In this document: positions 2,488 through 62,730 of the stretch, piece by piece
How the letters are laid out: each line of letters starts with the position of its first letter
Numbering within the stretch: the first letter of the stretch is position 1
NCBI GenBank assembly: GCA_965197475.1
Contig: CBDANF010000003.1
Location: forward strand, 32,001 to 96,000
Source of the DNA: Candidatus Poribacteria bacterium
GTDB taxonomy: Bacteria; Poribacteria; WGA-4E; WGA-3G
Length of the DNA: 64,000 nt
Direction of reading: 5' to 3'
Position numbers and translations under genes: made by a program
The notes under the pieces: model-generated
What the model saw: the letters and a program-made list of their open reading frames with translations, nothing else
What the model was told of the DNA's origin: nothing
Database searches by the model: none

Positions 2488-4881
2488 TTAAGAGAGTTTT
2501 GCACGGATAGCCTCAAAATCAGTTCCTTTCGGCATGACGAAGAGACACTTCCCGTTACTACGCGCTTCCCACAATTTGCCGATTTCGCGTTTTTCTTTTG
2601 AATCATCATTTGACCATAGATGACTGCCTTTGGATTCAATAACTAAATAGCGTCCATTGGTTAAGAGACAAACAAAATCGGGGTAAAACCTATCGGTTGA
2701 AGTCTGTAACCAAAAAGAAAGTGCTGGCTGGCGTTCAATATTACGTACCCAATACTTAACTTGGGGCAATGTGTCAATAAAATGGGCACACTTGAATTCT
2801 TCACCCTCTGCTTTCAGATCACCAACGTGAGGGTAATAGTGTTTTTGAAATTGATATGGTCCTTCATAACGAGTGTTGTAAGGGTAACGGTGTGAGTCAA
2901 AGGAAAAGCAATGATCCGGTGAAACAACAACTGGCGTTGCGCATTCAGGCAAAAGAAGATTATGGTATGCGCCAAGGTGTACGTTTTGGCGATGGCTGTC
3001 AATTTTCGCTGCAGCGGCATCTTTGAGAGCGTACTTGTTCCGGATAAGGACATCTATTGTCATCTCTCGATCTTCAATAAGATGCTTAACTAACCGCTGA
3101 AGGTAGGGAAGTGACTCGCGGCGTAGAATATCCAGATGCAAAATAGCTCTGTCAAGCCAGTCAGCGAGACGTGCAGCATCCCAGTTTTTGTCAGGTGCAA
3201 GGAGAGTCATCTGTTGATGTAGGACACCTAAATATTGCATCTCAACTCTTCCTTCTTCAGAAATACCGATTTCACCATGTTCTCCTGTATTGAATTCGGC
3301 TGGAAATTCTTCTTCAGTAAGTTCAGCATCACATTCGGATAACTGCCATACAGTTTCTAAAAAACGGGATGCCTCAAAATCAAGGAATGTCTGATTCTGC
3401 TGGACCATTAACTTCGGCACTTTAAAGGTTTCCCCTTGTTCAGCAGGGGCAGGCTCAGGATCAGGTGGTGTTAAACCTTCAAAAATGGGAAGAACGGGTT
3501 GTTCCTCGTCTATAGGGCGAATAAGTTCAGCAGCTGCTTGCTTCTGAAATCCGTTCTGAACGAGACCATCGGCTAAGGCGGAAGCAGCATCGTAGAAGTT
3601 CCGAGAGGCAACAAAAGCGTAGGCATTATTAAGGGCTGCCTGTTTCTTACGTTGTGCTTTCGGCAGGCGCATGACTCTGCCCAATATCTGTTCAACAGCA
3701 GTTGAGGATTTCATTTCGGCGACAGAGCAAAGAACATAGGCGAACGGACAATCCCACCCTTCCCGCAATGCTTGCACTGTGATAACGTAACGGATTTGAC
3801 ACTCCGGATCATTGATGTCTACGTCGTCAAGTTCCTTGTCCTCACCTGTGGCGCGAGCGATTTGTTCCTTGGGGATGTTGTGCTCTTCAAGTAGACACTT
3901 CTCAACGACTTCAACAGTCAAAGTTTCTTTGTCTTTGTGTCTTGGTTGTGCCTGAAGCAGCATAATAGGACGGATGTATTCACCTGTTTCCTCCCGTTCT
4001 CTCTCTGCTTCTAATTCAAGTGTGTTGCGTTGTGCTATAGCTGCAGAGAGCAGCTGTTTCCAATCCAGTTTGGTTTCTAACAGGATAGGCATTTTGATCA
4101 TGTCTTCCGCCTGCAGTTCCGCTGCGGAAACTGTATAGAGAACATTGGAAGGGTTTTGGGTTGTATCGGGTGTTGCGGTAAATTCAATGATTGCCGATGG
4201 ATTGAATCGGGCAAGTGTATCAAAAGAGAGTTCAGTCCGTGCATTGTGCGCTTCATCAACGATCACGAGCGGACGTTTGACGCATAGAAGGTTCGCGAGC
4301 GAATAGATAGGTTTACCACTTTCATCACGCTCAATTTCGGAGAGCGTTTCGTCAGACAGGTGTGTGAAATGTCCCATCAACGTACCCGACTGCTCGTAAA
4401 CTTTGCGCCCATCCGTGTCTTCAACGCGAAATGCTTGCATCGTCGAAACAATAATTGTGGTTTTGGTGTTCAGAATATGTAGCGGCAGGGAGAGTGCTTC
4501 ACCTATCGTGAAAACTTCTACTTTGCGCCTCGCGGATTCGAAAGCATCTCTGTAAGGATGTAGCGGATTTTTAAGTGCACTTAGTGTCTGATCGCGGATG
4601 GCATTTGAAGGCGTAAGCCAAAGCACAAGCGGCGTATCGGTCTTTAAAAGTTCAGATGCAGTGATGCTAACAGCATGGCACGCGACTAACGTTTTTCCAC
4701 CACCTGTAGGCAAACGCAGACAGACATAAGGCATGCCGGACAAGGACTCAATAGGCGCGTAGGGACGTTTGGTAAGATCGTAGAATGCGGTGTTAGCACT
4801 CTTGAAATGAAGGAATTTTTGATAGTATTCTGTCAACGTTTCAAGGGTGCGTTCTTGATATTCTTTGAGGGGGAGGTGCAT
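2488..4881 (-). CDS. res: type III restriction endonuclease Res subunit (SF2 helicase + PD-(D/E)xK nuclease)
   Basis: LPTGGGKT, DEAH, LREGWDCP, EQILGRVMR, and C-terminal YPDF...IESKG. Lies downstream of mod. Confidence 0.88.
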   Translation of the reverse strand: MHLPLKEYQERTLETLTEYYQKFLHFKSANTAFYDLTKRPYAPIESLSGMPYVCLRLPTGGGKTLVACHAVSITASELLKTDTPLVLWLTPSNAIRDQTLSALKNPLHPYRDAFESARRKVEVFTIGEALSLPLHILNTKTTIIVSTMQAFRVEDTDGRKVYEQSGTLMGHFTHLSDETLSEIERDESGKPIYSLANLLCVKRPLVIVDEAHNARTELSFDTLARFNPSAIIEFTATPDTTQNPSNVLYTVSAAELQAEDMIKMPILLETKLDWKQLLSAAIAQRNTLELEAEREREETGEYIRPIMLLQAQPRHKDKETLTVEVVEKCLLEEHNIPKEQIARATGEDKELDDVDINDPECQIRYVITVQALREGWDCPFAYVLCSVAEMKSSTAVEQILGRVMRLPKAQRKKQAALNNAYAFVASRNFYDAASALADGLVQNGFQKQAAAELIRPIDEEQPVLPIFEGLTPPDPEPAPAEQGETFKVPKLMVQQNQTFLDFEASRFLETVWQLSECDAELTEEEFPAEFNTGEHGEIGISEEGRVEMQYLGVLHQQMTLLAPDKNWDAARLADWLDRAILHLDILRRESLPYLQRLVKHLIEDREMTIDVLIRNKYALKDAAAAKIDSHRQNVHLGAYHNLLLPECATPVVVSPDHCFSFDSHRYPYNTRYEGPYQFQKHYYPHVGDLKAEGEEFKCAHFIDTLPQVKYWVRNIERQPALSFWLQTSTDRFYPDFVCLLTNGRYLVIESKGSHLWSNDDSKEKREIGKLWEARSNGKCLFVMPKGTDFEAIRAKLS

Positions 4882-5758: not shown

Positions 5759-5864
5759 GATATGTATAGTTTTTGCCAATTTCTATACATATCATGGACA
5801 ATATGTATACTTTCTATACATATCATAACCGATATGTATAGTTTTTGCCAATTTCTATACATAT
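5759..5864. repeat. array of three palindromic units built from ATATGTATAG/CTATACATAT half-sites
   Basis: GATATGTATAG-TTTTTGCCAATTT-CTATACATAT at 5759 and 5831 (identical), with a short-loop variant at 5801-5824. Confidence 0.9.
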
Positions 5865-17252: not shown

Positions 17253-17750
17253 TCAATTTGTATCTGTTGATTTATCCTTTTTTGGATTGGCGATCTCGAA
17301 CTGATGGATGGCGTGTCTATAGATAAGTACCATCTGGTTATTTACATTCATTGTAAAGTTATATTCATTGTATTCTACCGGTATGCCGTAAAGGATATGT
17401 CCGTTTCGGAGTGTCACCTTGACGTTTTTCTGTGCCAACTTGCGCATGGGGCGTTTCCCAATGATTTTCGGTCGCTTATGTGGGTCTTTATCGGTTCGGA
17501 GTTTTTCAGCTTCAACTTCTTTGTTTATCCGCAAAGCGTTTCCTAATTCATCCGCGGATTCTGGCATCAGGCAGAAGAGAATATCTACTTTGGGGAACGA
17601 GCCTGTAGATGTCCGGATCTCATATTTCTCTATTTCTGTGATATTTACCTTTTTGATACCGTCATAAGTTACGAGCAGCACGGGACCTTGAAACCTATTG
17701 AGCAAGGTTGTGGTTTCAAGGTTTTGTGTTGGACCGTTCTGTTGCGTCAT
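17253..17750 (-). CDS. protein with C-terminal Hfq/Sm-like domain
   Basis: VKVTLRNGHILYG...QMVLIYRHAI resembles the Hfq Sm1/Sm2 motifs (YKHAI); about 105-aa N-terminal extension. Confidence 0.55.
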   Translation of the reverse strand: MTQQNGPTQNLETTTLLNRFQGPVLLVTYDGIKKVNITEIEKYEIRTSTGSFPKVDILFCLMPESADELGNALRINKEVEAEKLRTDKDPHKRPKIIGKRPMRKLAQKNVKVTLRNGHILYGIPVEYNEYNFTMNVNNQMVLIYRHAIHQFEIANPKKDKSTDTN

Positions 17751-17947
17751 AGGATGGACCTCCAAAATAATAATTTTTGATATTTTACCGTAAATATAAC
17801 TTGATTTGTTAATCTTTGTTTAGACAGTCTACATAACTGATGGACTGCTTTGTGAAATGTCTGAGAGAACTGCACAAAAAGGTGCAAATTTTATACCCGA
17901 TTGCACGGAATTGGGCAGTGAGTTAGACTCACGTTATTACTTATAGT

Positions 17948-17976
17948 TTGTATCAAATGACCCCATGAGTTATACT
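17948..17976 (+). promoter_or_regulatory. sigma70 promoter of the DUF1670 operon overlapping the left IR
   Basis: TTGTAT-17 bp-TATACT; GGAGG RBS before ATG 18044. Confidence 0.6.
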
Positions 17977-18043
17977 ATTAGTATTCGTTAAACTAACGAG
18001 TAGATGTCCTCGGATCCCCGATAATCTATTCATGGAGGTCAAT

Positions 18044-18844
18044 ATGAACCGCAAGAAGGATACCGCTTACGGTATCACTCGGCTCGAATCCAAGAATGCC
18101 AGAGCCGCGATTATTCAGAAGATTTCAGCAGACTTTAATCTCATGCCTCTCGTTGCTGAAGCCTACTATAAACAGATTTCTACCTACTTTGAACAACATG
18201 CCGATGTGCAACTCACATCAGGGCAAATCTGCTACGAGGCAGTCGCCGCTGAGGAACCCGCAGGCAAACACATCGCTTTAGCGAAAAAAGTCTCCTGTCG
18301 ACTCAAACTCAACGATGTTGAAGCCGACCTTGAAGTTTTAGCGACTTATGGGCTCGCAGGACTCAGACGGCATCGGATCCTCCGATTGACCCAAGAAGCT
18401 TATGACCAAGAAGCCTTGCTGAGTTATGAGGATTTGGCGGTGTTATTAACCACCAGTCCTGCCACCGTCAAACGCGACATCCGAGCGTTGAAGCAGTCCG
18501 GCTATTTCGTGATGACGCGCGGGGCGAAACACGACATGGGCCCGGGACTGTCTCATAAGACGCAGATTCTCGAGCTGTACTTCAAAGCATACACCTTCAC
18601 CGAGATTGAGCAAAAGACGAACCACTCCGAACGGGCTGTCTACCGCTACTTGAGGGACTTCACACAAGTTGCCACGCTCCATCATCAAGGGTTCCCTAAC
18701 GCTCAGATACGCCTGATTTCTCATCTCTCTGACCGGTTGATACGCGAGTATCTCTCGCTGTTCAAGGAATATCAACACACCGATCGCATGACCCAACTCC
18801 TTCACCCAGAACCAGAGGACACAAAAAAGGAGGATCTCTCATGA
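18044..18844 (+). CDS. DUF1670-like protein A (multi-HTH)
   Basis: EAYDQEALLSYEDLAVLL..S.ATVKRDI, TRGAKHDMG..SHK, HSERAVYRY. Family recognised from memory of the motif. Confidence 0.8.
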   Translation: MNRKKDTAYGITRLESKNARAAIIQKISADFNLMPLVAEAYYKQISTYFEQHADVQLTSGQICYEAVAAEEPAGKHIALAKKVSCRLKLNDVEADLEVLATYGLAGLRRHRILRLTQEAYDQEALLSYEDLAVLLTTSPATVKRDIRALKQSGYFVMTRGAKHDMGPGLSHKTQILELYFKAYTFTEIEQKTNHSERAVYRYLRDFTQVATLHHQGFPNAQIRLISHLSDRLIREYLSLFKEYQHTDRMTQLLHPEPEDTKKEDLS

Positions 18845-19725
18845 GCAAACCTCTAACACGCACGCAAATCAACGAGAAGAAATTCAGACGCATCAACGAT
18901 AAATCCCTACGACAGTTGCTTATCCATCGCTTTCTCAATGACTACGGGTATGACAAAGGCGAAGTCACTGCCACCGCCATTGTTGATGATATTCTCAAGA
19001 CCGTTGAAGACTATTTCGTAATTACCCTCCCCTTGGAAAAACTCGCCACCGGTGATCAACTCCCAGATGAGCGTTTCCTAAGTTATGGACAACTCGTTTG
19101 GATGGCCGTCCCTATTGATGAACATCCAGAAAGAGGAAAGTCCATCGTCAAAACTCGGATGAAACCCATCATCCTGACCTACCTCGCCGCAGAGGATATT
19201 GAATCTTTTAGAAACGGTTTCACCTCCCGGCAATTGCGGATCAATCGCTTGGTCCGCTGGTGTCATCAAGCTTATGACCAAGGGGCATTATTGACACAAC
19301 TCGACTTGGCAGTTTTGCTCAATGTCTGCGATGCCGTTGTCTGTGATTATGTTAATGAATGGCAAAAAACCACTGGAGAACTCTTGCCCACCCGTGGCAA
19401 TATCCATGACTTATCGGGGGCTATTACCCATAAGAAAGAGATCATAACCCTCTATCTTCAAGGACATCTCACCCCCAGGATTGCCGCAAAGACCAAACAC
19501 TCTAAGGAGGCAGTTGATAGATACATTCGCGATTATGAGAGCGTCAAAGTCGTTCGCACCGCTACCACAGATATTGATAAAATCTCACAGATCACCCGAC
19601 TTTCTAAACGCGTTATCACTCAATATCTGGACCTGATTCCGCAGCCCCAACTCCAAGCCATAGATGCAAACCTTGCCAATTCAGACTCAAACGATGAAGC
19701 CACTCACCAAGGAGAAGCCCAATGA
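18841..19725 (+). CDS. DUF1670-like protein B (paralog of A, ATGA-coupled)
   Basis: QAYDQGALLTQLDLAVLL, PTRGNIHDLSG..THKKEII.LYLQG, HSKEAVDRYI. Confidence 0.8.
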   Translation: MSKPLTRTQINEKKFRRINDKSLRQLLIHRFLNDYGYDKGEVTATAIVDDILKTVEDYFVITLPLEKLATGDQLPDERFLSYGQLVWMAVPIDEHPERGKSIVKTRMKPIILTYLAAEDIESFRNGFTSRQLRINRLVRWCHQAYDQGALLTQLDLAVLLNVCDAVVCDYVNEWQKTTGELLPTRGNIHDLSGAITHKKEIITLYLQGHLTPRIAAKTKHSKEAVDRYIRDYESVKVVRTATTDIDKISQITRLSKRVITQYLDLIPQPQLQAIDANLANSDSNDEATHQGEAQ

Positions 19726-19792
19726 GACCCTAATCCTATGTTCCCGACGAACTTTACTTCGCAAAACCGGGGCAGGTGCCTTGAAAATATGG

Positions 19793-19821
19793 TTGACAAC
19801 CGCTACCGGTTTTGCTATACT
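19793..19821 (+). promoter_or_regulatory. strong outward-facing sigma70 promoter in the element right end
   Basis: TTGACA-17 bp-TATACT with extended -10 TGn. The -35 is flanked by IR GCAAAACCGG (19761) / CCGGTTTTGC (19806). Confidence 0.75.
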
Positions 19822-19827
19822 TTAGAC

Positions 19828-19954
19828 ACGTTTATCGCTAAACGCATCATTTCTCAAAGAGGATGCTCGCGATCCCAACGCAACCCACTCATCAACGATC
19901 GCTGGGAAGCCAATGAACATCAGCCTTCCAGCTATCCTATGGTCATTTGATACT
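19828..19954 (+). ncRNA. putative structured right-end RNA of the DUF1670 element
   Basis: Four consecutive potential stem-loops downstream of a near-consensus promoter; 147/151 nt identical in the mini copy. Confidence 0.5.
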
Positions 19955-22049
19955 ATTTTCTTATTAGCATTTTTCTGGTAGCAGTGAACTTGCCTACGGT
20001 TAACGTATAGAAATAGATTCCACTTGCCACAGGTTCACCCACATCATTTCTACCATTCCAATACGCCGCACGGCTGCGACTTTTATAGATACCAGCATCC
20101 TGATGTCCCAATACTAAGGTCTTAACTATTTTACCATTTGCAGCATAGATTGTCAAACTCACCTCAGCAGGTTTAGCAAGATGATAGGGTATCCACGTTT
20201 CTGGATTAAACGGATTCGGATAGTTTGCAAGCAGCTTTGTTTTTTCAGGAGTCAACGATGTTAGAAGCCTCTGGAGATTCGCTATGCCCTTTCGAAAAAC
20301 AATAGAACCGTCGTTTTCTATCTGCGCCTGCGTTATCCATGCTCGTATCATTGCGGGCATTAATTCTTCACTATTTATCACAACAAGATTCATATCAATG
20401 CCACGGTTGGTAATTAATGTCGGAGCAGATGCGGTTGTCTCACCTATATGCTGTGCAACAGCGATGAGGTCTAAGATGCCGATCGTCCCATCGCTGTCCA
20501 CGTCAGCTTGTGGCGTGACGGATGCATCTTTTCCCAAGTATTGTGCCACCTGCATTAGATCTAAAATGCTCACTTGCTCATCCTGATTTACATCCCAAGG
20601 CAAGAACACACGCTCTTCCACAGTGATAACAAAATCAGGAATGCTCAGAGAAATTGTTACCAAGTCACTTGAACCTGCATATAAGTTGGTAAGTGTTACT
20701 TGCGCTTCGCCAATCGCCTTTGCCATAAACGTTACCGACAGCAGCTTGCCTGTGCCGCTTACGCCGTCTCTGCTCAGACTTATCGCGCCGAGTCCGGTGA
20801 TTTTCCCTGCTGTGTTATCAATCGTGCTTTCAAGAAAGAATGTCGTTCTATCATCTTTCTTCAAGAAATCACCTTCGCTCACCTCAACTGCTTCAAGGGC
20901 AGCAGGGTCAAATACAATATTACATAACCATCCCGCTAAATCAGTGGTGTTTTCTACGTTGAGATGTAGTGTAAACGTATCATCAACGCGAACAGGGAGT
21001 TCATCTATAGAAAAAGAGAGATTGGCACTATTCACATCCGATACGGTGATCACAATCTCTGGAATACTCAGAGGAATTGCTACCGACTCGCTTGAATCTG
21101 CATATAGGTTGTTAAGCGTGACTTGTGCTTCGCCAATCGCCTTTGCTACAAATGTCACCGACAACAATCTGCCTGTGCCGCTTCCCCCGTCTCTGCTCCG
21201 GCTTACCGAGCCGAGTCCGGTGATTTTCCCTGCTGTGTTATCAATCGTGCTTTTGAGAAAGATGGTTGTTGCATCGCCTTCTTTCAAGAAATCGCCTTCG
21301 ACCACTTCAACAGCTTCAAACACATTCGGGTCAAACACAATATCACATTGCCAACTGGCTAAGTTGGTGATTTCATCTGCATTTAGATAAAGCGTAAATG
21401 TATCTCCGATGACAACAGATGTCGTATCAATGGAAAAGGAAAATCTGGGATCGCTCTCATCCAATTCGGGTTGCTCTTCCACAGTGATGACAATCTCTGG
21501 AATACTCAGAGTCAGAGGAATTATCTCTAAAACACCCGCCTCTGAGACATTACTCGAACCTGCCTTTAAGTTAGCAAGAGTGACCTGCGCTTCGCCAATC
21601 GCCTTTGCCACAAATGCTACCGACAACAATTTGCCTGTGCCACTAACACCACCTTTGGAAGTTCGTGCCGCGCCGAGATCAGTGATTTTCCCTGCTGTGT
21701 TATCAATTGCGCTTACAAGAAAGTGGGTTTTTCCACTACCTCCTTTCAAGAAGTCGCCTTCAACCACTTCAACTGCTTCAAGCACATTGGGGTCAAATAC
21801 TATATTACATTGCCATCCTGCTAAATCGGTGACGTTTTCTACATTCAGATGCAACGTAAACGTATTGTCAACGTGTACGGGTGTTTCATCTATAGAAAAG
21901 GAGAGTAGTGCTTCTTCAACAGCGGTAGGTTGATTATCGTCAGGGATGTTAACATTTTGTGCCACTATTGTAAGTGGAAACATCAAAAACAACATTGCAC
22001 AAATCCCAAAAGTGTAAACAAAATTATATTTTTCATTAACTATATCCAT
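19953..22049 (-). CDS. secreted protein: 3 cohesin-like repeats + dockerin/EF-hand + FlgD-Ig/T9SS-like C-terminal domain
   Basis: Three LAGWQ.NIVFDP..LEAVEV.EGDFL repeats; DVNQD/DVDSDG; NYPNPFNPETWIPY...TRKMLIRK. Confidence 0.85.
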   Translation of the reverse strand: MDIVNEKYNFVYTFGICAMLFLMFPLTIVAQNVNIPDDNQPTAVEEALLSFSIDETPVHVDNTFTLHLNVENVTDLAGWQCNIVFDPNVLEAVEVVEGDFLKGGSGKTHFLVSAIDNTAGKITDLGAARTSKGGVSGTGKLLSVAFVAKAIGEAQVTLANLKAGSSNVSEAGVLEIIPLTLSIPEIVITVEEQPELDESDPRFSFSIDTTSVVIGDTFTLYLNADEITNLASWQCDIVFDPNVFEAVEVVEGDFLKEGDATTIFLKSTIDNTAGKITGLGSVSRSRDGGSGTGRLLSVTFVAKAIGEAQVTLNNLYADSSESVAIPLSIPEIVITVSDVNSANLSFSIDELPVRVDDTFTLHLNVENTTDLAGWLCNIVFDPAALEAVEVSEGDFLKKDDRTTFFLESTIDNTAGKITGLGAISLSRDGVSGTGKLLSVTFMAKAIGEAQVTLTNLYAGSSDLVTISLSIPDFVITVEERVFLPWDVNQDEQVSILDLMQVAQYLGKDASVTPQADVDSDGTIGILDLIAVAQHIGETTASAPTLITNRGIDMNLVVINSEELMPAMIRAWITQAQIENDGSIVFRKGIANLQRLLTSLTPEKTKLLANYPNPFNPETWIPYHLAKPAEVSLTIYAANGKIVKTLVLGHQDAGIYKSRSRAAYWNGRNDVGEPVASGIYFYTLTVGKFTATRKMLIRK

Positions 22050-22378: not shown

Positions 22379-22452
<74 letters not shown>

Positions 22453-22462
22453 TATTGAACAC

Positions 22463-22535
22463 GGTGGATGTAGCTCAGGGGTAGAGTGCCTGACTGTGGA
22501 TCAGGAGGCCGTGGGTTCAATCCCCATCATCCACC
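22463..22535 (+). tRNA. tRNA-His(GTG)
   Basis: CCTGA-CTGTGGA-TCAGG anticodon arm; G-1:C73. Confidence 0.95.
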
Positions 22536-22545
22536 TTTTTAGGAT

Positions 22546-22618
22546 GCGTCCGTAGTTCAATGGATAGAGCAATAGCCTTCGGAGCTATAAGTTGGGGGTT
22601 CGAATCCCTCCGGACGCG
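22546..22618 (+). tRNA. tRNA-Arg(TCG)
   Basis: ATAGC-CTTCGGA-GCTAT anticodon arm. Confidence 0.92.
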
Positions 22619-22619
22619 G

Positions 22620-22692
22620 GTGCCGTTAGCTCAATTGGCAGAGCATCTGACTCTTAATCAGAGGGTTGAAGGTTCGATTCCTTCACGGCGCA
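22620..22692 (+). tRNA. tRNA-Lys(CTT)
   Basis: TCTGA-CTCTTAA-TCAGA anticodon arm. Confidence 0.95.
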
Positions 22693-58600: not shown

Positions 58601-59913
58601 CAGTCGTCCTGGATTCTCCGAGCGAACAGCAGACAAGGATGCTCGTCGGGAGCGATGATGCTGTCAAGGTTTGGCTCAACGGTGAGTTGGTTCATGAAGC
58701 CTACGGTACACGTGGAGCAGCTGACTACGCATATTTCTTTGATGTTACACTGAAACAAGGAAAAAATGTCTTGTTAGTTGCTGTTGACAACCATGGACAT
58801 GGGGGTTTTGCTGGTCATTTTGGTTTTGCAAGTGACGCGAAATATACGGTATTTCGTCCAGGTACCAGATTCTTATTTGCCACAGAGGCTACAAGTTTTG
58901 AGATTGATGATACGTTTACGCTGCATCTAAATACAGAAAATGTGAAAAATTTAGCTGGGTGGCAAGCCGACCTTGTGTTTAATCCTGATGTACTTGAGGC
59001 TATTGAGGTGAGCGAGGGTGATTTCCTGATGTCAGAGGACGAGGAAACCCGCTTTAATGGTGGCACAATTGATAACGAAACCGGTAGAATCACTGGTATA
59101 AATGCCTTACGATTCGACAGTGGGGTCAGTGGAAAAGGCACATTGTGTTCAGTGAGTTTCACTGTTAAGGGACCTGGCGAGTGCCGATTGACACTGGAAA
59201 ATTTTGAGGCAGGTTCCCGCGGCAGTCAGCCAATTCCTGCTACTCCACCAGAGTATGTCATCATTGTGGAAGGAGAGGAACCTACCAGACCGGCATGGGA
59301 TGTAGATCAGGATGGAGAAGTGGACATTTTTGATCTGCTTCAAGTGGCACAGTCCTTAGACACCGATGTATCTGTTAACCCGCAAGCTGACGTAAACGGC
59401 GATGGGTCTATTGATATCTTTGACCTCATCACTGTAGCACAGAATTTCGGTGAATCAACCGCATCCGCTCCTATCTCTGTCGCAATGGACACCGAAGAAC
59501 TCACGCCTGCGATGATACGGGCATGGATAAAACAGGCACAGGTTGAAGATGACGGTTCTATCGCTTTCCGACAAGGTATAGCAAATCTCCAGAAACTTTT
59601 GGAGAGTGTGACGGTGCCAAAGAAAACGGTGTTGCTTGCCAACTATCCGAATCCGTTCAATCCGGAGACGTGGATACCGTATCACCTTGCGAAACCTACG
59701 GCGGTCAATTTGACTATCTACGCTGCCAACGGAACAGTGATTAGGACATTGGTGTTAGGACATCAGGCTGCTGGCATTTATCAGAGTCGTGGTCGTGCAG
59801 CATATTGGGATGGGAAAAATGAGGTAGGCGAATCTGTCGCGAGCGGTGTCTATTTTTATACGTTCACTACAGGAGATTTCGCTGCTACCCGCAAAATGTT
59901 GTTGATGAAATAA
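55663..59913 (+). CDS. secreted multidomain protein: two CxxCH heme sites, internalin-like LRRs, beta-sandwich, cohesin, dockerin, FlgD/T9SS-like tail
   Basis: CSGCH, CIGCH, LxxLxLxxNxIxDLxPL repeats, GSDDAVKVWLNG, LAGWQADLVFNP, DVNGDG, NYPNPFNPETW. Ends AAA TAA. Confidence 0.85.
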   Translation: MKVLKSFITISFLLILILGFQNVNAQEDIAQQAYTLFEQYCSGCHGESGDYKDSLLLDRTALVDTMVVIPDDPENSEFYKRLLGSTDNGAQMPFNADPLSPDAIATIRSWIEAGAPDWVSQDEPDLNFITTDTIFDTINTHLETLALSQRPYARYFTLTHLYNAGENPETLRDYRIALSKLVNSLSWGGLVTNPKPIDMEETIFYIDLQHYNWDVGTDRWTQIEQVYPYNIEFNPDTQASLLEKLTSLRTKMECQVPFVHVDWFLATASLPPLYNDILDLPETARELEDKLGVDVAGNIQNAAGTRVWRAGFNDSGVSNHNRVVERHTSNNGAYWKSYDFAGSAGTKNIFTYPLSFTHDGGEIIFNLPNGLQAYYLVDAAGNRLDVAPTDIVSNPAANDPAVYNGLSCIGCHTKGMRTFEDQVRAVIEKTENPPFDKVKALRLYPEQSILDALLQKDTDKFQQALVEIGGPFEDDESRDQFLEEFEYEPVQRFHEAFHGTVDAAHAAAAVGLETEEFLDKILDNTRLQDLGLLVLIGEDGSIKRDAWTSNFDEVISVLYPDKDDPEIDRPLDPLTGDVYIPDVSLRAAIEEILNKAPGDTITAADMEKVTRIEADNRGISDLTGLQYATKLERIEFRHNSISDLSPLAGLTQLNNIKLRGNQITDITPLENLNRVDWLGLEGNQIIDLSPLKSLTRLEGIGISGNPVEDVSPLSELKSLERIDAWRTPTKDFSALHSLRRLSWIEYGNDKLITELPSLEGLESLTRLVIHGCSISDLSALSELMQLEWLELVNNSIEGEALSDLKNLKNLTTLNLDANLISDVSGLSELTNLEVLYLENNLIQDVSALSKLSNLERLDLRNNAISDFSPLDSLSENTFVRMVGNPGFPAGGPKITGPWLWVIVPGDKLADGTDFLAKATSGAATEIKVATNGAAAGKAVGDNTWTWHTLSAFGGNNINEMTESLGWGTGREIYDHIVYGSVVLDSPSEQQTRMLVGSDDAVKVWLNGELVHEAYGTRGAADYAYFFDVTLKQGKNVLLVAVDNHGHGGFAGHFGFASDAKYTVFRPGTRFLFATEATSFEIDDTFTLHLNTENVKNLAGWQADLVFNPDVLEAIEVSEGDFLMSEDEETRFNGGTIDNETGRITGINALRFDSGVSGKGTLCSVSFTVKGPGECRLTLENFEAGSRGSQPIPATPPEYVIIVEGEEPTRPAWDVDQDGEVDIFDLLQVAQSLDTDVSVNPQADVNGDGSIDIFDLITVAQNFGESTASAPISVAMDTEELTPAMIRAWIKQAQVEDDGSIAFRQGIANLQKLLESVTVPKKTVLLANYPNPFNPETWIPYHLAKPTAVNLTIYAANGTVIRTLVLGHQAAGIYQSRGRAAYWDGKNEVGESVASGVYFYTFTTGDFAATRKMLLMK

Positions 59914-59967: not shown

Positions 59968-62120
59968 ATGCTACGAACGAAATTATTCATATCTATATTT
60001 ACGCTTTTAACACTACTTTTCATCATTCCGTTGGGGCATTGGCACAAGGTGTTAACATTCCCGACCCGAACCTGCGGGCTACTATTGAAGAAGCACTCGG
60101 TAAAACACCGGGTGTCCTGATTACAGAAAATGAGATGGCAACGCTGGTAGACCTTGCAGCGCGTGACAAAGAGATTAAAGATTTAACAGGACTCGCGTTG
60201 GCAATAAATCTACAAGACCTCAACCTTCGCAACAACCTGATAGATGACATATCCGAACTGACAGGATTGGAGCGACTCAATAGTGTTGACTTGGGTGCAA
60301 ACGTTATAGAGGATATTTCACCGCTCAAGGGTAAAATCATCATGAGATCTCTAGTAATTGACAATACTTTCGTATCCAATCTTGAATCTTTGGAAGGATT
60401 AATCAACTTGGCATATCTAGATATTTCGCATAATGACTTGATTGAAGACCTATCCCCCCTTGGGAATTTAAAAAGGCTGAGGGAATTAGTGATGCATAAC
60501 CTGAAGGGATTGGCGATATCTAATAATAAAGCAGCTGACCTATCCCCCCTTGCAGGATTAATTAGTCTGATAAATTTTCACTCATTTGGCACCTCTATAT
60601 CAGACCTCACCCCCTTGGCAAGCCTACCTAAACTCAGGTTGATTAATATCCATAGCGCGGGAATAAGCGATCTTTCTCCGCTGGAGGGATTAACAGGTTT
60701 GAGAGAGCTATATCTCTTCAACAACAAAATAGAGAACATATCTCCGCTGGCAAGTTTAACAGGCTTGACCCGTTTGAGTCTAAGACATAACAAGGTCTCG
60801 GATGTATCTGCCCTTGCCGCGCTGCGTAATTTGAGATTTATAGATCTTGAAGACAATAAGATATCGGATTTTTCCAAATTGAATGTATTGCGTCTCGGCG
60901 GTACAACTATCCTTGGGAACAACAATCCTGGATTCATAATTGATGCCCCGAAAATCAAGGGTCCGTGGTTGTGGGTAATAGTACCAACTGAAGGAATGTC
61001 CGGGTCGGAAGCGGCAAAATCAAGCACAGATTTTTTGGCACAGGCAAGCGGTGGTACTATTACAGAAGAGATAGTTGCGACTCAAGGTGCTGTTGAAGGT
61101 GCTTCCGTTGGGAATAAGAAGTGGAAAGTTGGTGAACTTTCTCGAAGAGGTGGCAATAACATCAATGAACTTGTAAACGAGGTAGGACTCGGAATAGATG
61201 ATATAAATCATCATGTAGCATACGGTTCAATTATCTTGTCTTCTCCGCAGGAACAGCAGTCAAAGATGTTTGTCGGTAGTGGTGACGCTGTAAAGGTATG
61301 GCTCAACGGTGAATTAGTGCATAATAAAGCCGTAGATCGGGATGCCGACGATTATCAAGATACTGTTGGTGTTGTGCTGAAAAAGGGTGAAAATTTCTTG
61401 TTAGTTGCTGTCTATGAGGGCAAAGGGTGGTGGTCAGGTTTTTTTGGTCTTGACCCTGCCACGCAATTTACAGTCTCTCTACCGAATCCCAGGCTTCCGG
61501 TAGACCATCCAGCGGATGTGAATGGAGACGGAAAAGTGAGTATTCTTGATATGATTCAGGTAGCAAGGTCTTTTGGATTACTCAAACCTGGCGGTTCAAC
61601 TGCAGATGTAAACGGTGATGAAGTTGTTGACATCGACGACCTCATCTTTGTAGCACAACATATAGGCGATCTAACGGATAGTGATGCATCTGCCGCGTTC
61701 TCTCCCGCAATGATACAAGGTTGGATATCACTCGCCTGGGAGAGATACGATGGTTCAATCGAATTCCAGAAAGGAATAACGAACTTAGAAAATATCTTAA
61801 TATCTTTGAAGTCAAAGAAAACAGCAAAGAAAACAGTCCTATTTGCGAATTACCCTAACCCGTTTAATCCGGAGACATGGATACCTTACCAATTGGCAGC
61901 ACCTACTAAAGTAGTTTTGACTATCCATTCTGCAACGGGGTCAGTCGTGCGAACCTTGGCATTAGGATATCAGGCTGCGGGGGTATATAAAACTCGGAAC
62001 CGCGCTGCACACTGGGATGGGAAAAATGAGACCGGTGAATCTGTGGCGAGTGGAATCTATTTTTATACGCTAACAGCAGGAGATTTCACAGCAACGCGGA
62101 AGATGCTAATTCTTAAATAG
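59968..62120 (+). CDS. secreted LRR + dockerin + FlgD/T9SS-like tail protein; signal peptide out of frame
   Basis: AGGAG + ATG at 59968 encodes a signal peptide one base out of frame at a G4 run (60033-60036). The body has LRRs, DVNGDG and NYPNPFNPETW..TRKMLILK. Confidence 0.8.
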
Positions 62121-62556
62121 TATCAAATGACCATAGGATAGCTGGAAGGTTGATGTTTATTGGCTTCCCAGCGATCATTAATGAGTGGGTTGCGTTGGGA
62201 TCGCGAGCATCCTCTTTGAGAAATGATGCGTTTAGCGATAAACGTGTCTAAAGTATAGCAAAACCGGTAGTAGCAGATTTGTCCTGATGTCAGTCGCACA
62301 TCGGCGTGTTGATCAAAATAACTCGAAATCTGTTGATAGTAGGCTTCGGCAACGAGAGGCATCAGATTAAAGTCTGATGAAATCTTCTGAATAATAGCGG
62401 CTCTTGGATTCGGGTTCTCCGTTTGATACCGTAGGCGGTATCCATCTTGCGGTTCATATTGACCTCCATGAATAGAGTATCAGGGATCCGAGGACATCTA
62501 CTCGTTAGTTTAACCCATACTATTAGTTTGACTCATGGGGTCATTTGATACAAACT
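62119..62556 (-). mobile_element. 438-bp internally deleted (non-autonomous) copy of the DUF1670 element
   Basis: Same IRs (62120-62132, 62539-62551) and AT direct repeat (62117-18, 62557-58). Left end plus degraded orfA 5' part joined at about 62270 to the right end. Confidence 0.9.
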
Positions 62557-62730
62557 ATGAAGTCATATTGAGTAAAACATAAGGATGTGTTAAAATAGGG
62601 AAAGAGAAGGGTGGACTTTATGTCCCATTCTTTCTACTTCAGACACCTATTTGCTTTGAGTTCTTAGCTCTTACTCGCTATAAGTTCAATATTAAACAGC
62701 AGCGATGAATGGAGGTTGAAGAGAATTCCG

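Follow-up and report, generated by a model that had tools for sequence, protein, structure and literature searches.

The window (the whole 64,000-nt stretch of Candidatus Poribacteria DNA that was analysed) contains two copies of a DNA element, each set against the 3' end of a gene of the FlgD-Ig/T9SS-tail type. The features in and around copy 1 are as follows.

17937..17942, minus strand: AAG TAA, the stranded native Lys codon and stop past the far end, orthologous to the empty site in genome L032
17943..19958, plus strand: element copy 1, full length, with 19 further matches in the genome at 88-100% identity
17950..17962, plus strand: far-side terminal inverted repeat GTATCAAATGACC, 13 bp, present at 20 far-side ends
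18032..18844, plus strand: ORF1, 270 aa, DUF1670 with HTH modules (Pfam PF07900, 1.1e-60)
18841..19725, plus strand: ORF2, 294 aa, DUF1670 (Pfam, 1.5e-61)
19793..19821, plus strand: outward promoter-like site TTGACA-17-TATACT; 11 of the 12 consensus bases agree, and a TG precedes the -10 box
19897..19936, plus strand: imperfect palindrome GATCGCTGGGAAG ... CCTTCCAGCTATC, in a subterminal position on the inner side of the gene-side repeat
19941..19953, plus strand: gene-side terminal inverted repeat GGTCATTTGATAC, present at 20 gene-side ends
19953..19958, minus strand: AAA TAG, the Lys codon and stop now serving the host gene, supplied wholly or partly by the element
19953..22049, minus strand: host gene 1, 698 aa, with three cohesin domains, a dockerin and a FlgD-Ig/T9SS-like tail

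The assembly that holds the window carries 20 copies of this 2.0-kb element, three of which are 100% identical across 2022 nt. The borders of copy 1 were set from empty orthologues and empty hairpins. They place its tips, ATAG...CTAT, at 17943-19956 and give an element of ~2014 bp. The TT at 19957-19958 (AA on the host strand) fills out the host Lys codon, and the same AA recurs at 17941-17942, within the stranded AAG beyond copy 1. On the minus strand, the gene-side end (19953-19970) reads ATG CTA ATA AGA AAA TAG TATCAAATGACC and the other end (17937-17962) reads ...GGTCATTTGATACAAACTAT|AAGTAA. As is generally expected of an insertion sequence, the element is short, multicopy (20 copies) and bounded by inverted repeats of 13 bp, its two DUF1670 ORFs are its sole genes, and its presence varies at orthologous sites. 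A transposase of the DDE, DEDD, HUH, Ser or Tyr class, also expected of insertion sequences, was not found. The genome is rich in other high-copy elements, namely a 1154-bp repeat and a 914-bp repeat, each in at least 20 copies. A partner element with the same ends was considered and rejected, the recurrent GGATCAAAAGACC being located within an unrelated repeat.

Copy 2 and its surroundings comprise the following features.

59905..59913, plus strand: end of an unoccupied paralogue, ATG AAA TAA
60039..62120, plus strand: host gene 2, 693 aa, ending ...TRKMLILK followed by AAA TAG
62115..62558, minus strand: element copy 2, 0.44 kb, ORF-less after an internal deletion, with both ends intact
62559..62690, plus strand: unrelated ~130-bp repeat adjoining the far end of copy 2 and beginning GAAGTCATATTGAG

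Copy 2 lacks the segment 18236-19802 of copy 1 and has the same orientation relative to its host gene. On the plus strand, 62103-62132 reads ATG CTA ATT CTT AAA TAG TATCAAATGACC, and the copy ends ...GATACAAACTAT at 62558. With a size of 432-444 bp, both ends retained at 88-95% identity and no ORF, it is a MITE-like, non-autonomous derivative. One more ORF-less deletion derivative, present in Logan contigs with the joint 17977->19805, likewise retains both element ends. No circle or tandem junction of abutted ends (such as ...GATACAAACTAT-(AA)-ATAGTATC...) was found in 101 genomes, the Logan contigs contain neither a circle junction nor an empty site, and no excision footprint was seen.

The C-terminus of host gene 1 scores 33.6 bits against FlgD_ig, above the cut-off of 27, and 20.1 bits against Por_Secre_tail, below its cut-off of 27; the other host genes were assigned by a tail regular expression alone. 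The copies in this genome adjoin the ...TRKM.I.K tail of FlgD-Ig/T9SS-type genes in 18 of 20 cases (fuller motif ...G.YFY...TRKM.I.K), always in the same orientation, with the ORF2-proximal end facing the gene. At the genus level, 42 of 46 element ends come directly after ATGNTNATNNNN. At the family level (101 genomes), 192 of 218 ends directly follow ATG-NTN-ATN-NNN, a prefix of 6 fixed bases with a chance expectation of ~1 in 4096, and all 5 loci examined in a sister genus lie at the tail motif. An earlier, sequence-only reading of this DNA had proposed site-specific, one-orientation insertion at the 3' end of such genes; the letters that it quoted for the ends of copy 1, copy 2 and the unoccupied paralogue are all present, and tabulation of the flanks across this genome and related genomes bears out the target pattern well beyond those two copies. 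The motif that it offered, ATGCTAAT, proved too narrow, and the consensus is AAR ATG NTN ATN NNN, followed by ^AAR-stop. The same reading pointed out that the empty paralogue is without the motif; this does not account for emptiness, as most of the ~25 unoccupied tails in the genome fit the consensus. Selection against harmful insertions may sharpen the target pattern. One off-target site with empty copies was identified inside a gene of another element (GGTCTTG^AAAAAC); it is motif-like and likewise begins with AA. The string TTGATAC is common to the end repeat and the M-L-I-R codons, as if the target mimicked the repeat, a likeness left as a lead because coding also fixes these target positions and unoccupied tails share them.

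The position of the insertion was refined with empty orthologues. A gene that carries the element in L025 lacks it in L032, where the gene reads TTG AAG TAA TAATGC... (TAATGCAAGTCTAATTCACTGCC after TAA). A second gene has an insertion in G000 but none in L026 (AGA AAG TAG AAGAAT...) or in L029 and L030 (AAG TAA AGGAAT...), and host gene 1 has an empty orthologue in L026 that is 92% identical. The far flanks of two further copies yielded nothing beyond repeat-rich matches and an orthologous site in G024 (L045), itself occupied. Since the empty orthologues read AAG-stop, the AAR TRR beyond ...CTAT is the native Lys codon and stop. The far side consists of AAR plus TAA, TAG or TGA in 19 of 20 copies of this genome and of AAR plus stop in 27 of 32 copies of five other genomes; TGG never occurs. 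The gene side, AAA TAG, is identical at 20 of 20 ends here and at the 218 ends of the family sample.

By these junctions, the element contributes either AAA-TAG or A-TAG with a 2-bp AA repeat, since the AA on both sides could equally belong to the element. The insertion point lies before or inside the last Lys codon, with the host protein end ...K-stop unchanged, and the claim that the host protein is left intact stands, because the element tip gives K-stop. The target duplication may be 0, 1 or 2 bp. A duplication of 3 bp or more is excluded by recent, identical copies with AAA on the gene side and AAG on the far side. Other details of the sequence-only reading need correction. By comparison with the empty orthologues, the borders that it drew ([AG...CTAT] plus a duplicated AT) miss by 3-4 nt, and its insertion inside the stop codon, restoring T+AA or T+GA, gives way to a native Lys codon and stop that both survive beyond ...CTAT. 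The TGA restored at copy 2 is a coincidence, because the GA after CTAT opens the unrelated ~130-bp repeat, which begins GAAGTCATATTGAG in 6 of 6 copies. Empty sites were expected to end AAA TAA or AAA TGA; AAG is in fact the commoner codon, by 17 to 8 among unoccupied tails and by 14 to 5 over AAA on the far side of the element.

Both proteins encoded by the element belong to PF07900, with 205.1 bits for ORF1 and 208.1 bits for ORF2 against a curated cut-off of 25 bits. They are paralogues (34% identity, BLASTP 1e-26), and the start of ORF2 overlaps the stop of ORF1 (ATGA). No sigma-70-like promoter was found upstream of ORF1. Among 14 copies, pN/pS is 0.14 for ORF1 and 0.07 for ORF2, and both genes are under purifying selection. 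A separate 294-aa ORF2 is retained in 18 of 19 long copies; in the remaining copy it is fused with ORF1. The non-coding ends diverge by 0.3% and, on the right, 1.0% among the copies in the genome, against a pS of 0.09-0.15.

No catalytic domain was detected in ORF1 or ORF2 with Pfam, NCBIfam or PHROGs, or in ORF2 by a PDB sequence search. PHROGs gave only weak regulator matches, HTH_23, HTH_28 and HTH_29 matched below the Pfam cut-off, and PADLOC and a tblastn search against plasmids gave no match. With a pLDDT of 86.5, the AF2 model of ORF2 consists of helices plus a single beta hairpin. Its helix-turn-helix modules form a chain in which no catalytic fold can be recognised, and a Foldseek search with this model returned no match at E <= 0.001; the weak matches are HTH regulators and paired domains, including Pax. 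In the DUF1670 family two His and one Tyr are invariant, and Arg, Asp and Lys are near-invariant. The invariant H220 and Y228 appear to lie within an HTH recognition helix of the model, so they need not be catalytic. A GHS...Y-like motif in ORF2 suggested a tyrosine recombinase, a candidate that was rejected, as the fold gives no support and the motif falls in a predicted HTH helix. A prediction of the ORF1-ORF2 complex scored 0.24 against a mark of 0.32, which bears neither way on binding.

The element was found in 12 of 40 genomes of the genus and 60 of 101 genomes of the family sample, and in the phylum sample PF07900 is present in 38 of 151 genomes, where it comes in pairs and in 1 to at least 9 copies. 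Elements with the same end repeats also occur in other families of this order, inserted within the loop of a REP-like hairpin. These hairpin-targeting relatives share the AAATAG tip, so the TAG of the element may not be an adaptation to the T9SS tail. DUF1670 itself is present in many bacterial phyla and in Methanosarcina, with 1004 representative clusters at E <= 0.001. Where DUF1670 relatives lie on metagenome contigs, these contigs typically have the size of an element, about 1.3-2.3 kb. Some DUF1670 proteins are double or triple fusions, and one ~3.5-kb metagenome contig has a single triple-DUF1670 ORF. An Actinomycetota MAG contains a relative with the same pair of overlapping genes, and its locus contains TCA[A/T]ATGACC 4 times (0.46 expected). 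The literature library searched contains no mention of DUF1670 or PF07900, and nothing relevant on Poribacteria insertion sequences or on stop-codon or T9SS insertion. The best reading is that this element family is undescribed; an unpublished name, or one confined to a database such as ISfinder, may exist.

Collectively, we interpret the sequence as an autonomous, site-specific, IS-like mobile element of ~2014 bp with two DUF1670 genes, a reading to which we assign a probability of roughly 0.6. In this bacterial family it inserts at the final Lys codon of FlgD-Ig/T9SS-tail genes, either directly before that codon or after its second base. Its tip then reads (AA)A TAG in the host frame, and the native Lys codon and stop are stranded 2 kb away. 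ORF1 and ORF2 are translationally coupled. The DUF1670 pair would bind the TCAAATGACC ends, select the target, and catalyse or recruit conservative or copy-out recombination at a 2-bp AA core. Since the conserved ends of a multicopy gene family serve as the target, one genome offers dozens of harmless landing sites. It is conceivable, at somewhat less than even odds, that DUF1670 represents a new HTH-only class of recombinase or transposase, which would act as hetero-oligomers of two to three paralogous modules, perhaps aided by RNA from the outward promoter, and whose target specificity would have been retuned within one order, a REP-like hairpin loop giving way to the final codon of a secreted-protein gene family.

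A rather unlikely alternative is that DUF1670 only binds DNA (ends, target or regulatory sites) and that cleavage and joining are performed by an enzyme encoded elsewhere, be it a recombinase or nuclease of the host or the transposase of another element. The HTH-chain model of ORF2, with its lack of a known catalytic fold, is what this explanation would predict, and the 1154-bp and 914-bp repeats could supply enzymes. Against it, the end repeats occur on no other element of the genome in a 13-mer search allowing up to 2 mismatches, whose 150 matches equal the 40 real ends plus about the chance expectation. The helper would also need to be universal, because distant phyla and one archaeal control genome also have DUF1670-only elements of equal size, and the invariant and near-invariant residues of the family count against this alternative as well.

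The gene-side non-coding end bears on a second alternative, in which targeting would be guided by an RNA of ~130 nt transcribed from the outward promoter, similar to a bridge or omega RNA, with the DUF1670 proteins as partners. The promoter-like site is directed through the gene-side end into the 3' end of the host gene, and it is conserved as TTGNCA-17-TATACT in diverse elements: among those listed, TATACT is present in 11 of 11, and a TTGNCA-like hexamer in 9 of them. Within the subfamily this right end, at the 1.0% divergence given above, is the most conserved part of the element, and it did not align between the T9SS- and hairpin-targeting subfamilies, whose targets differ (a 76% match stops at query position 3344, with the element end at 3656). 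The stem of the subterminal palindrome is kept, with 11 of 13 positions pairing in at least 8 of 10 T9SS-type sequences, and it includes G-U pairs on the promoter strand, but the G-U evidence applies to the opposite strand as well. RNAalifold across subfamilies yielded no shared fold (-0.59 kcal/mol), folding of single sequences gave unremarkable z-scores (-2.5 and -2.3), an Rfam search of the right end gave no match, and no clear complementarity of the region to the tail or hairpin target was found. Contigs from RNA libraries cannot show a transcript, and neither can the depth of those libraries, because the element-to-flank ratio is similar in DNA runs. Targeting by such an RNA seems improbable.

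Finally, the pattern could arise with no true specificity, if a gene-plus-element unit had been duplicated or had spread by gene conversion from one paralogue to another, or if insertions persisted only where they do no harm; host tails are indeed paralogous and selection must purge disruptive insertions, yet this explanation is already largely refuted and we give it very little credence, since the mean similarity across the terminal 240 nt of 15 host genes is 68.5%, against 95% for the adjoining 240 nt of the element, and the far flanks differ among copies and are unrelated, all of which indicates independent insertions. Orthologous empty sites also exist, insertions past the stop would be equally harmless and yet the same junction nucleotide is used at 192 of 218 ends, and the sister subfamily is as precise in a non-coding hairpin as the T9SS-targeting one is in its tails.

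The results tie DUF1670, an unstudied family, to mobile DNA. The element is a compact natural insertion system with nucleotide precision, an unchanged target protein and many safe landing sites, and the two related subfamilies with differing targets constitute a natural experiment on the determinant of specificity. If the DUF1670 proteins are catalytic, they would represent a new mechanism of DNA recombination, and if the HTH-recombinase interpretation is true, a family of ~1000 clusters at 50% identity in bacteria and archaea would consist of unrecognised site-specific mobile elements. Annotators of sponge-symbiont genomes should expect such elements, with broken assemblies and swapped flanks.

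Several known systems share individual properties with the element. SCCmec at rlmH/orfX, phage 21 at icd and many islands at tRNA 3' ends are integrative elements that bring a replacement gene end; they are large, use tyrosine or serine recombinases and have one attB per genome. As in these systems, the element supplies the last codon(s) and the stop, is orientation-specific and has a short shared core, but it differs from them in its 2-kb size, its inverted repeats, its dozens of targets and the absence of a recognisable recombinase, neither protein having a Pfam match to the tyrosine or serine type and ORF2 having no Foldseek match at E <= 0.001. Tn7 at attTn7 (glmS) is the classic safe-harbour element, inserting past the stop at a single site with TnsABC and TnsD and a 5-bp duplication. 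It also recognises a conserved 3' coding end and inserts harmlessly in one orientation; unlike Tn7, the DUF1670 element encodes no Tns proteins (TnsA/B/C or TnsD/TniQ). IS630/Tc1-mariner elements have a bipartite, paired-like HTH DNA-binding region, a DDE domain and a duplicated TA target. The Pax paired domains among the weak Foldseek matches and the sub-cut-off HTH_23, HTH_28 and HTH_29 recall this region, whereas the DUF1670 element is without a DDE domain and its target is not TA. IS200/IS605 elements have an HUH Y1 transposase, subterminal hairpins and no terminal inverted repeats, whereas here no HUH domain was found and terminal repeats are present. The transposase of IS110 elements is of the DEDD class, and most of these elements have no terminal inverted repeats, unlike the DUF1670 element with its 13-bp repeats and two HTH-only proteins, neither of which matches a DEDD (RuvC-like) transposase. 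In its mode of insertion, the element nevertheless resembles the IS110/IS1111-family insertion sequences that target REP hairpins, such as ISPpu9 (PMC12288879): in both, insertion is precise, keeps to one orientation and duplicates little or none of the target. In addition, the sister subfamily occupies a REP-like loop, and a 2-bp core on both sides is possible.

The repeat element that adjoins the cohesin gene is a site-specific insertion sequence. It is present in 20 copies in the genome of the window, a three-contig Candidatus Poribacteria assembly (completeness 92.7%, contamination 7%). Eighteen copies measure about 2004 bp between their repeats, one 1772 bp and one 432 bp. The window contains a full-length copy (copy 1) and a short copy (copy 2), with the features listed here; the gene-side end is the end next to the host gene, and the far end is the opposite one.

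17950-17962, 13-bp terminal inverted repeat of the far end, GTATCAAATGACC
18032-18844, plus strand, ORF1, 270 aa, DUF1670 (1e-60)
18841-19725, plus strand, ORF2, 294 aa, DUF1670 (1e-61)
19941-19953, 13-bp terminal inverted repeat of the gene-side end, GGTCATTTGATAC
19930-19990, junction of the minus-strand host gene and the repeat element
19953-22049, minus strand, host gene 1, 698 aa, three cohesin domains, a dockerin and an FlgD-Ig/T9SS-like tail
62115-62558, copy 2, retaining ~290 nt at the far end and ~150 nt at the gene-side end, the part matching 18236-19802 absent

Copy 2 is a non-autonomous derivative. The two ORFs overlap by ATGA, and their proteins share 34% identity. On the host-gene strand, the gene-side junction of copy 1 reads ...ACC AGA AAA ATG CTA ATA AGA AAA TAG, then TATCAAATGACC. 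Copy 1 extends leftwards as far as 17943; the plus-strand sequence across that border is ...cacgttattactt|ATAGTTTGTATCAAATGACC. Three tRNA-like direct repeats (family D8, resembling a tRNA gene cluster) lie at 22400-22690, immediately downstream of the region where the host gene starts, and an exact 34-nt direct repeat, GATATGTATAGTTTTTGCCAATTTCTATACATAT, is found twice at 5759-5864, the two copies being 72 nt apart and separated by related 31-nt units. Many further high-copy repeats populate the genome (G000:C3:839186-845190 and elsewhere), including a 1154-bp element in more than 25 copies with ~99-100% identity and a 914-bp element in about 20 copies.

The gene-side flanks of 18 of the 20 copies translate to ...G.YFY...TR[KR][ML].I.K, after which come AAA TAG and the repeat. 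One exception (C3:845190) is inside an IS630-like HTH gene belonging to another repeat, and the other (C3:3738921) is surrounded by non-coding-looking DNA. Within the genus, 46 such element ends were retrieved from 12 of 40 genomes, 42 of them preceded by ATG NTN ATN NNN. Across the family, the same prefix precedes 192 of 218 ends from 60 genomes (101 examined), and five of five loci from a sister genus show the tail-target pattern. The proposal of site-specific insertion at the ends of FlgD/T9SS-tail genes, made in the sequence-only reading, is thus borne out in genome, genus and family. For 15 host genes (693-3475 aa), similarity over the final 240 nt averages 68.5%, compared with 95% for the adjoining 240 nt of the element, and the far flanks are unrelated to one another; the insertions are therefore independent events. 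At G000:C2:1474045, G000:C3:3318634 and G000:C3:3440319, what is left of the occupied host is only a tail, of 144, 69 and 63 aa respectively. These elements may sit on truncated genes, and the truncations could reflect element-mediated deletions.

On the host strand, the far ends read ...GATACAAACTAT, then AAR, then TAA, TAG or TGA. AAR plus a stop follows 19 of the 20 copies in the window's genome (AAG 14, AAA 5; TAA 11, TAG 6, TGA 2) and 27 of 32 ends in five other genomes (TAA 14, TAG 10, TGA 3, TGG 0). Unoccupied tails in the window's genome show the same mix of Lys codons and stops (AAG 17, AAA 8; TAA 19, TAG 9, TGA 4). In the related genome G001 (L032), an empty orthologue ending DSISQLRKMVILK reads ATT TTG AAG TAA TAATGCAAGTCTAATTCACTGCC, and its counterpart, the far flank in the window, reads CTAT AAG TAA TAACGTGAGTCTAACTCACTGCC. 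The empty cohesin-gene orthologue in G006 (L026, 92% identical) ends AGA AAG TAG AAGAATAAGTT, and the gene in G012 and G002 ends AAG TAA AGGAATAAGT; the far flank AAG TAA AGAAATAAGTT at two other copies in the window's genome agrees with this. These two orthologous empty sites show that the native Lys codon, together with the native stop, stays outside the element on its far side. What was inserted is AAATAG...CTAT or, in an equally valid reading, ATAG...CTAT with a 2-bp AA repeat; the sequence fits both. A 3-bp target repeat is ruled out because the gene side has AAA and the far side AAG. Borders of AG...CTAT with an AT repeat, and native stops restored as T+AA or T+GA, had been suggested earlier; the empty orthologues place these borders wrong by 3-4 nt. 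The GA of the supposed TGA at copy 2 is the opening of an unrelated ~130-bp repeat adjoining the element, copies of which begin GAAGTCATATTGAG in six of six cases. This repeat (62559-62690), next to the far end of copy 2, has several copies in the window's genome and turns up elsewhere in the genus, in 13 or more other genomes.

Elements from other families of the same order (genomes G035, G026 and G126) share 76% identity over the two ORFs and have the same 13-bp repeats and tips as the tail-targeting element. The target of this sister subfamily lies inside a REP-like hairpin, occupied as AACCGAGTTTTGAAG AAATAG[...]CTAT AAAAAACTCGGTT. The empty hairpin AACCGAGTTTTGAAGAAAAAACTCGGTT occurs 72, 35 and 42 times in the three genomes, respectively; it is partly arranged in arrays with a spacing of ~190-490 bp (also loci L034-L038). 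In hairpin insertions, too, the far side retains the whole native sequence, and the element enters immediately before AA. The off-target copy in the window's genome behaves in the same way, with empty sites reading GGTCTTG AAAAACTC and the occupied one GGTCTTG AAATAG... Because the AAATAG tip is also present at sites without a reading frame that would need it, the replacement stop may have belonged to the tip beforehand and not be an adaptation.

The flanks of copy 1 are not an original pair. Its Hfq-like flank, with a 170-aa ORF (17253-17765, minus strand) showing a weak Hfq-like C-terminal match (23 bits, below cut-off), pairs with a DSISQ...K gene, as in G020 (L025), and the gene owning this flank is at G000 C2:1160548. 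The cohesin gene's own downstream flank is found at two other identical copies, within a 4.4-kb stretch that is 98.7% alike, and the off-target copy lacks its far flank. The exchange involves three copies with 100% identity over 2022 nt (window 17943-19958, G000:C2:1160543-1162564 and G000:C3:845185-847206). It is caused either by recombination between identical copies, by strain mixture (contamination 7%) or by assembly misjoins.

ORF1 is 269-270 aa long in 14 of 19 long copies, and a separate 294-aa ORF2 is present in 18; the remaining one has the two ORFs fused. In a set of 14 copies of equal length, ORF1 shows a pN/pS of 0.14 and ORF2 one of 0.07, and synonymous divergence is 0.09-0.15, compared with only 0.3% and 1.0% for the left (82 nt) and right (220 nt) non-coding ends. 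Both the proteins and the ends are under constraint, and ORF-less derivatives exist. The DUF1670 family comprises 1004 representative clusters (E <= 0.001), a few of them fusions of two or three modules, and spans many phyla and, among control genomes, Methanosarcina acetivorans. Contigs with relatives are mostly element-sized. In an Actinomycetota MAG, a relative shows this pair of overlapping genes as well, and its locus contains TCA[A/T]ATGACC four times (0.46 expected by chance). Pfam, NCBIfam and PHROGs revealed no recognisable catalytic domain in ORF1 or ORF2, nor did a PDB sequence search with ORF2. The AlphaFold2 model of ORF2 (67 sequences, pLDDT 86.5) is helical with one beta hairpin; Foldseek returned no match at E <= 0.001, and the weak ones were HTH regulators and paired domains. 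H197, H220 and Y228 are invariant, and R139, D155, D190 and K198 nearly so.

The element is mobile, site-specific and orientation-specific, and the host protein is left unchanged, as the sequence-only reading had held. The DUF1670 pair would bind the TCAAATGACC ends, choose the target and either perform or recruit recombination at an AA core. A conserved promoter-like site (TTGACA-17-TATACT, 19793-19821) is directed outward through the gene-side end. It would read into the ORFs only when the ends are joined, as in elements with circular intermediates, an idea we keep as a hypothesis because no joined-end junction was found in assemblies or contigs; with ends not joined, it would produce RNA antisense to the end of the host gene. 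The right non-coding end is a candidate specificity determinant, as it is the best conserved part within a subfamily and does not align across subfamilies whose targets differ. A search for a conserved RNA fold in it gave none.

Entry into the 3' end of a gene with a replacement end is already known from large integrative elements. IS110-family elements such as ISPpu9 (PMC12288879) are known to target REP hairpins. The library searched contains no paper mentioning "DUF1670" or "PF07900". It is possible, at slightly below even odds, that these proteins form a categorically new kind of recombinase. In contrast to the large integrative and IS110-family elements, the element described here is 2 kb long with inverted repeats, it carries no genes besides two HTH-only paralogues from an uncharacterised family, it targets the conserved final codons of a multicopy family of secreted proteins, and it has a sister subfamily with a retuned target.
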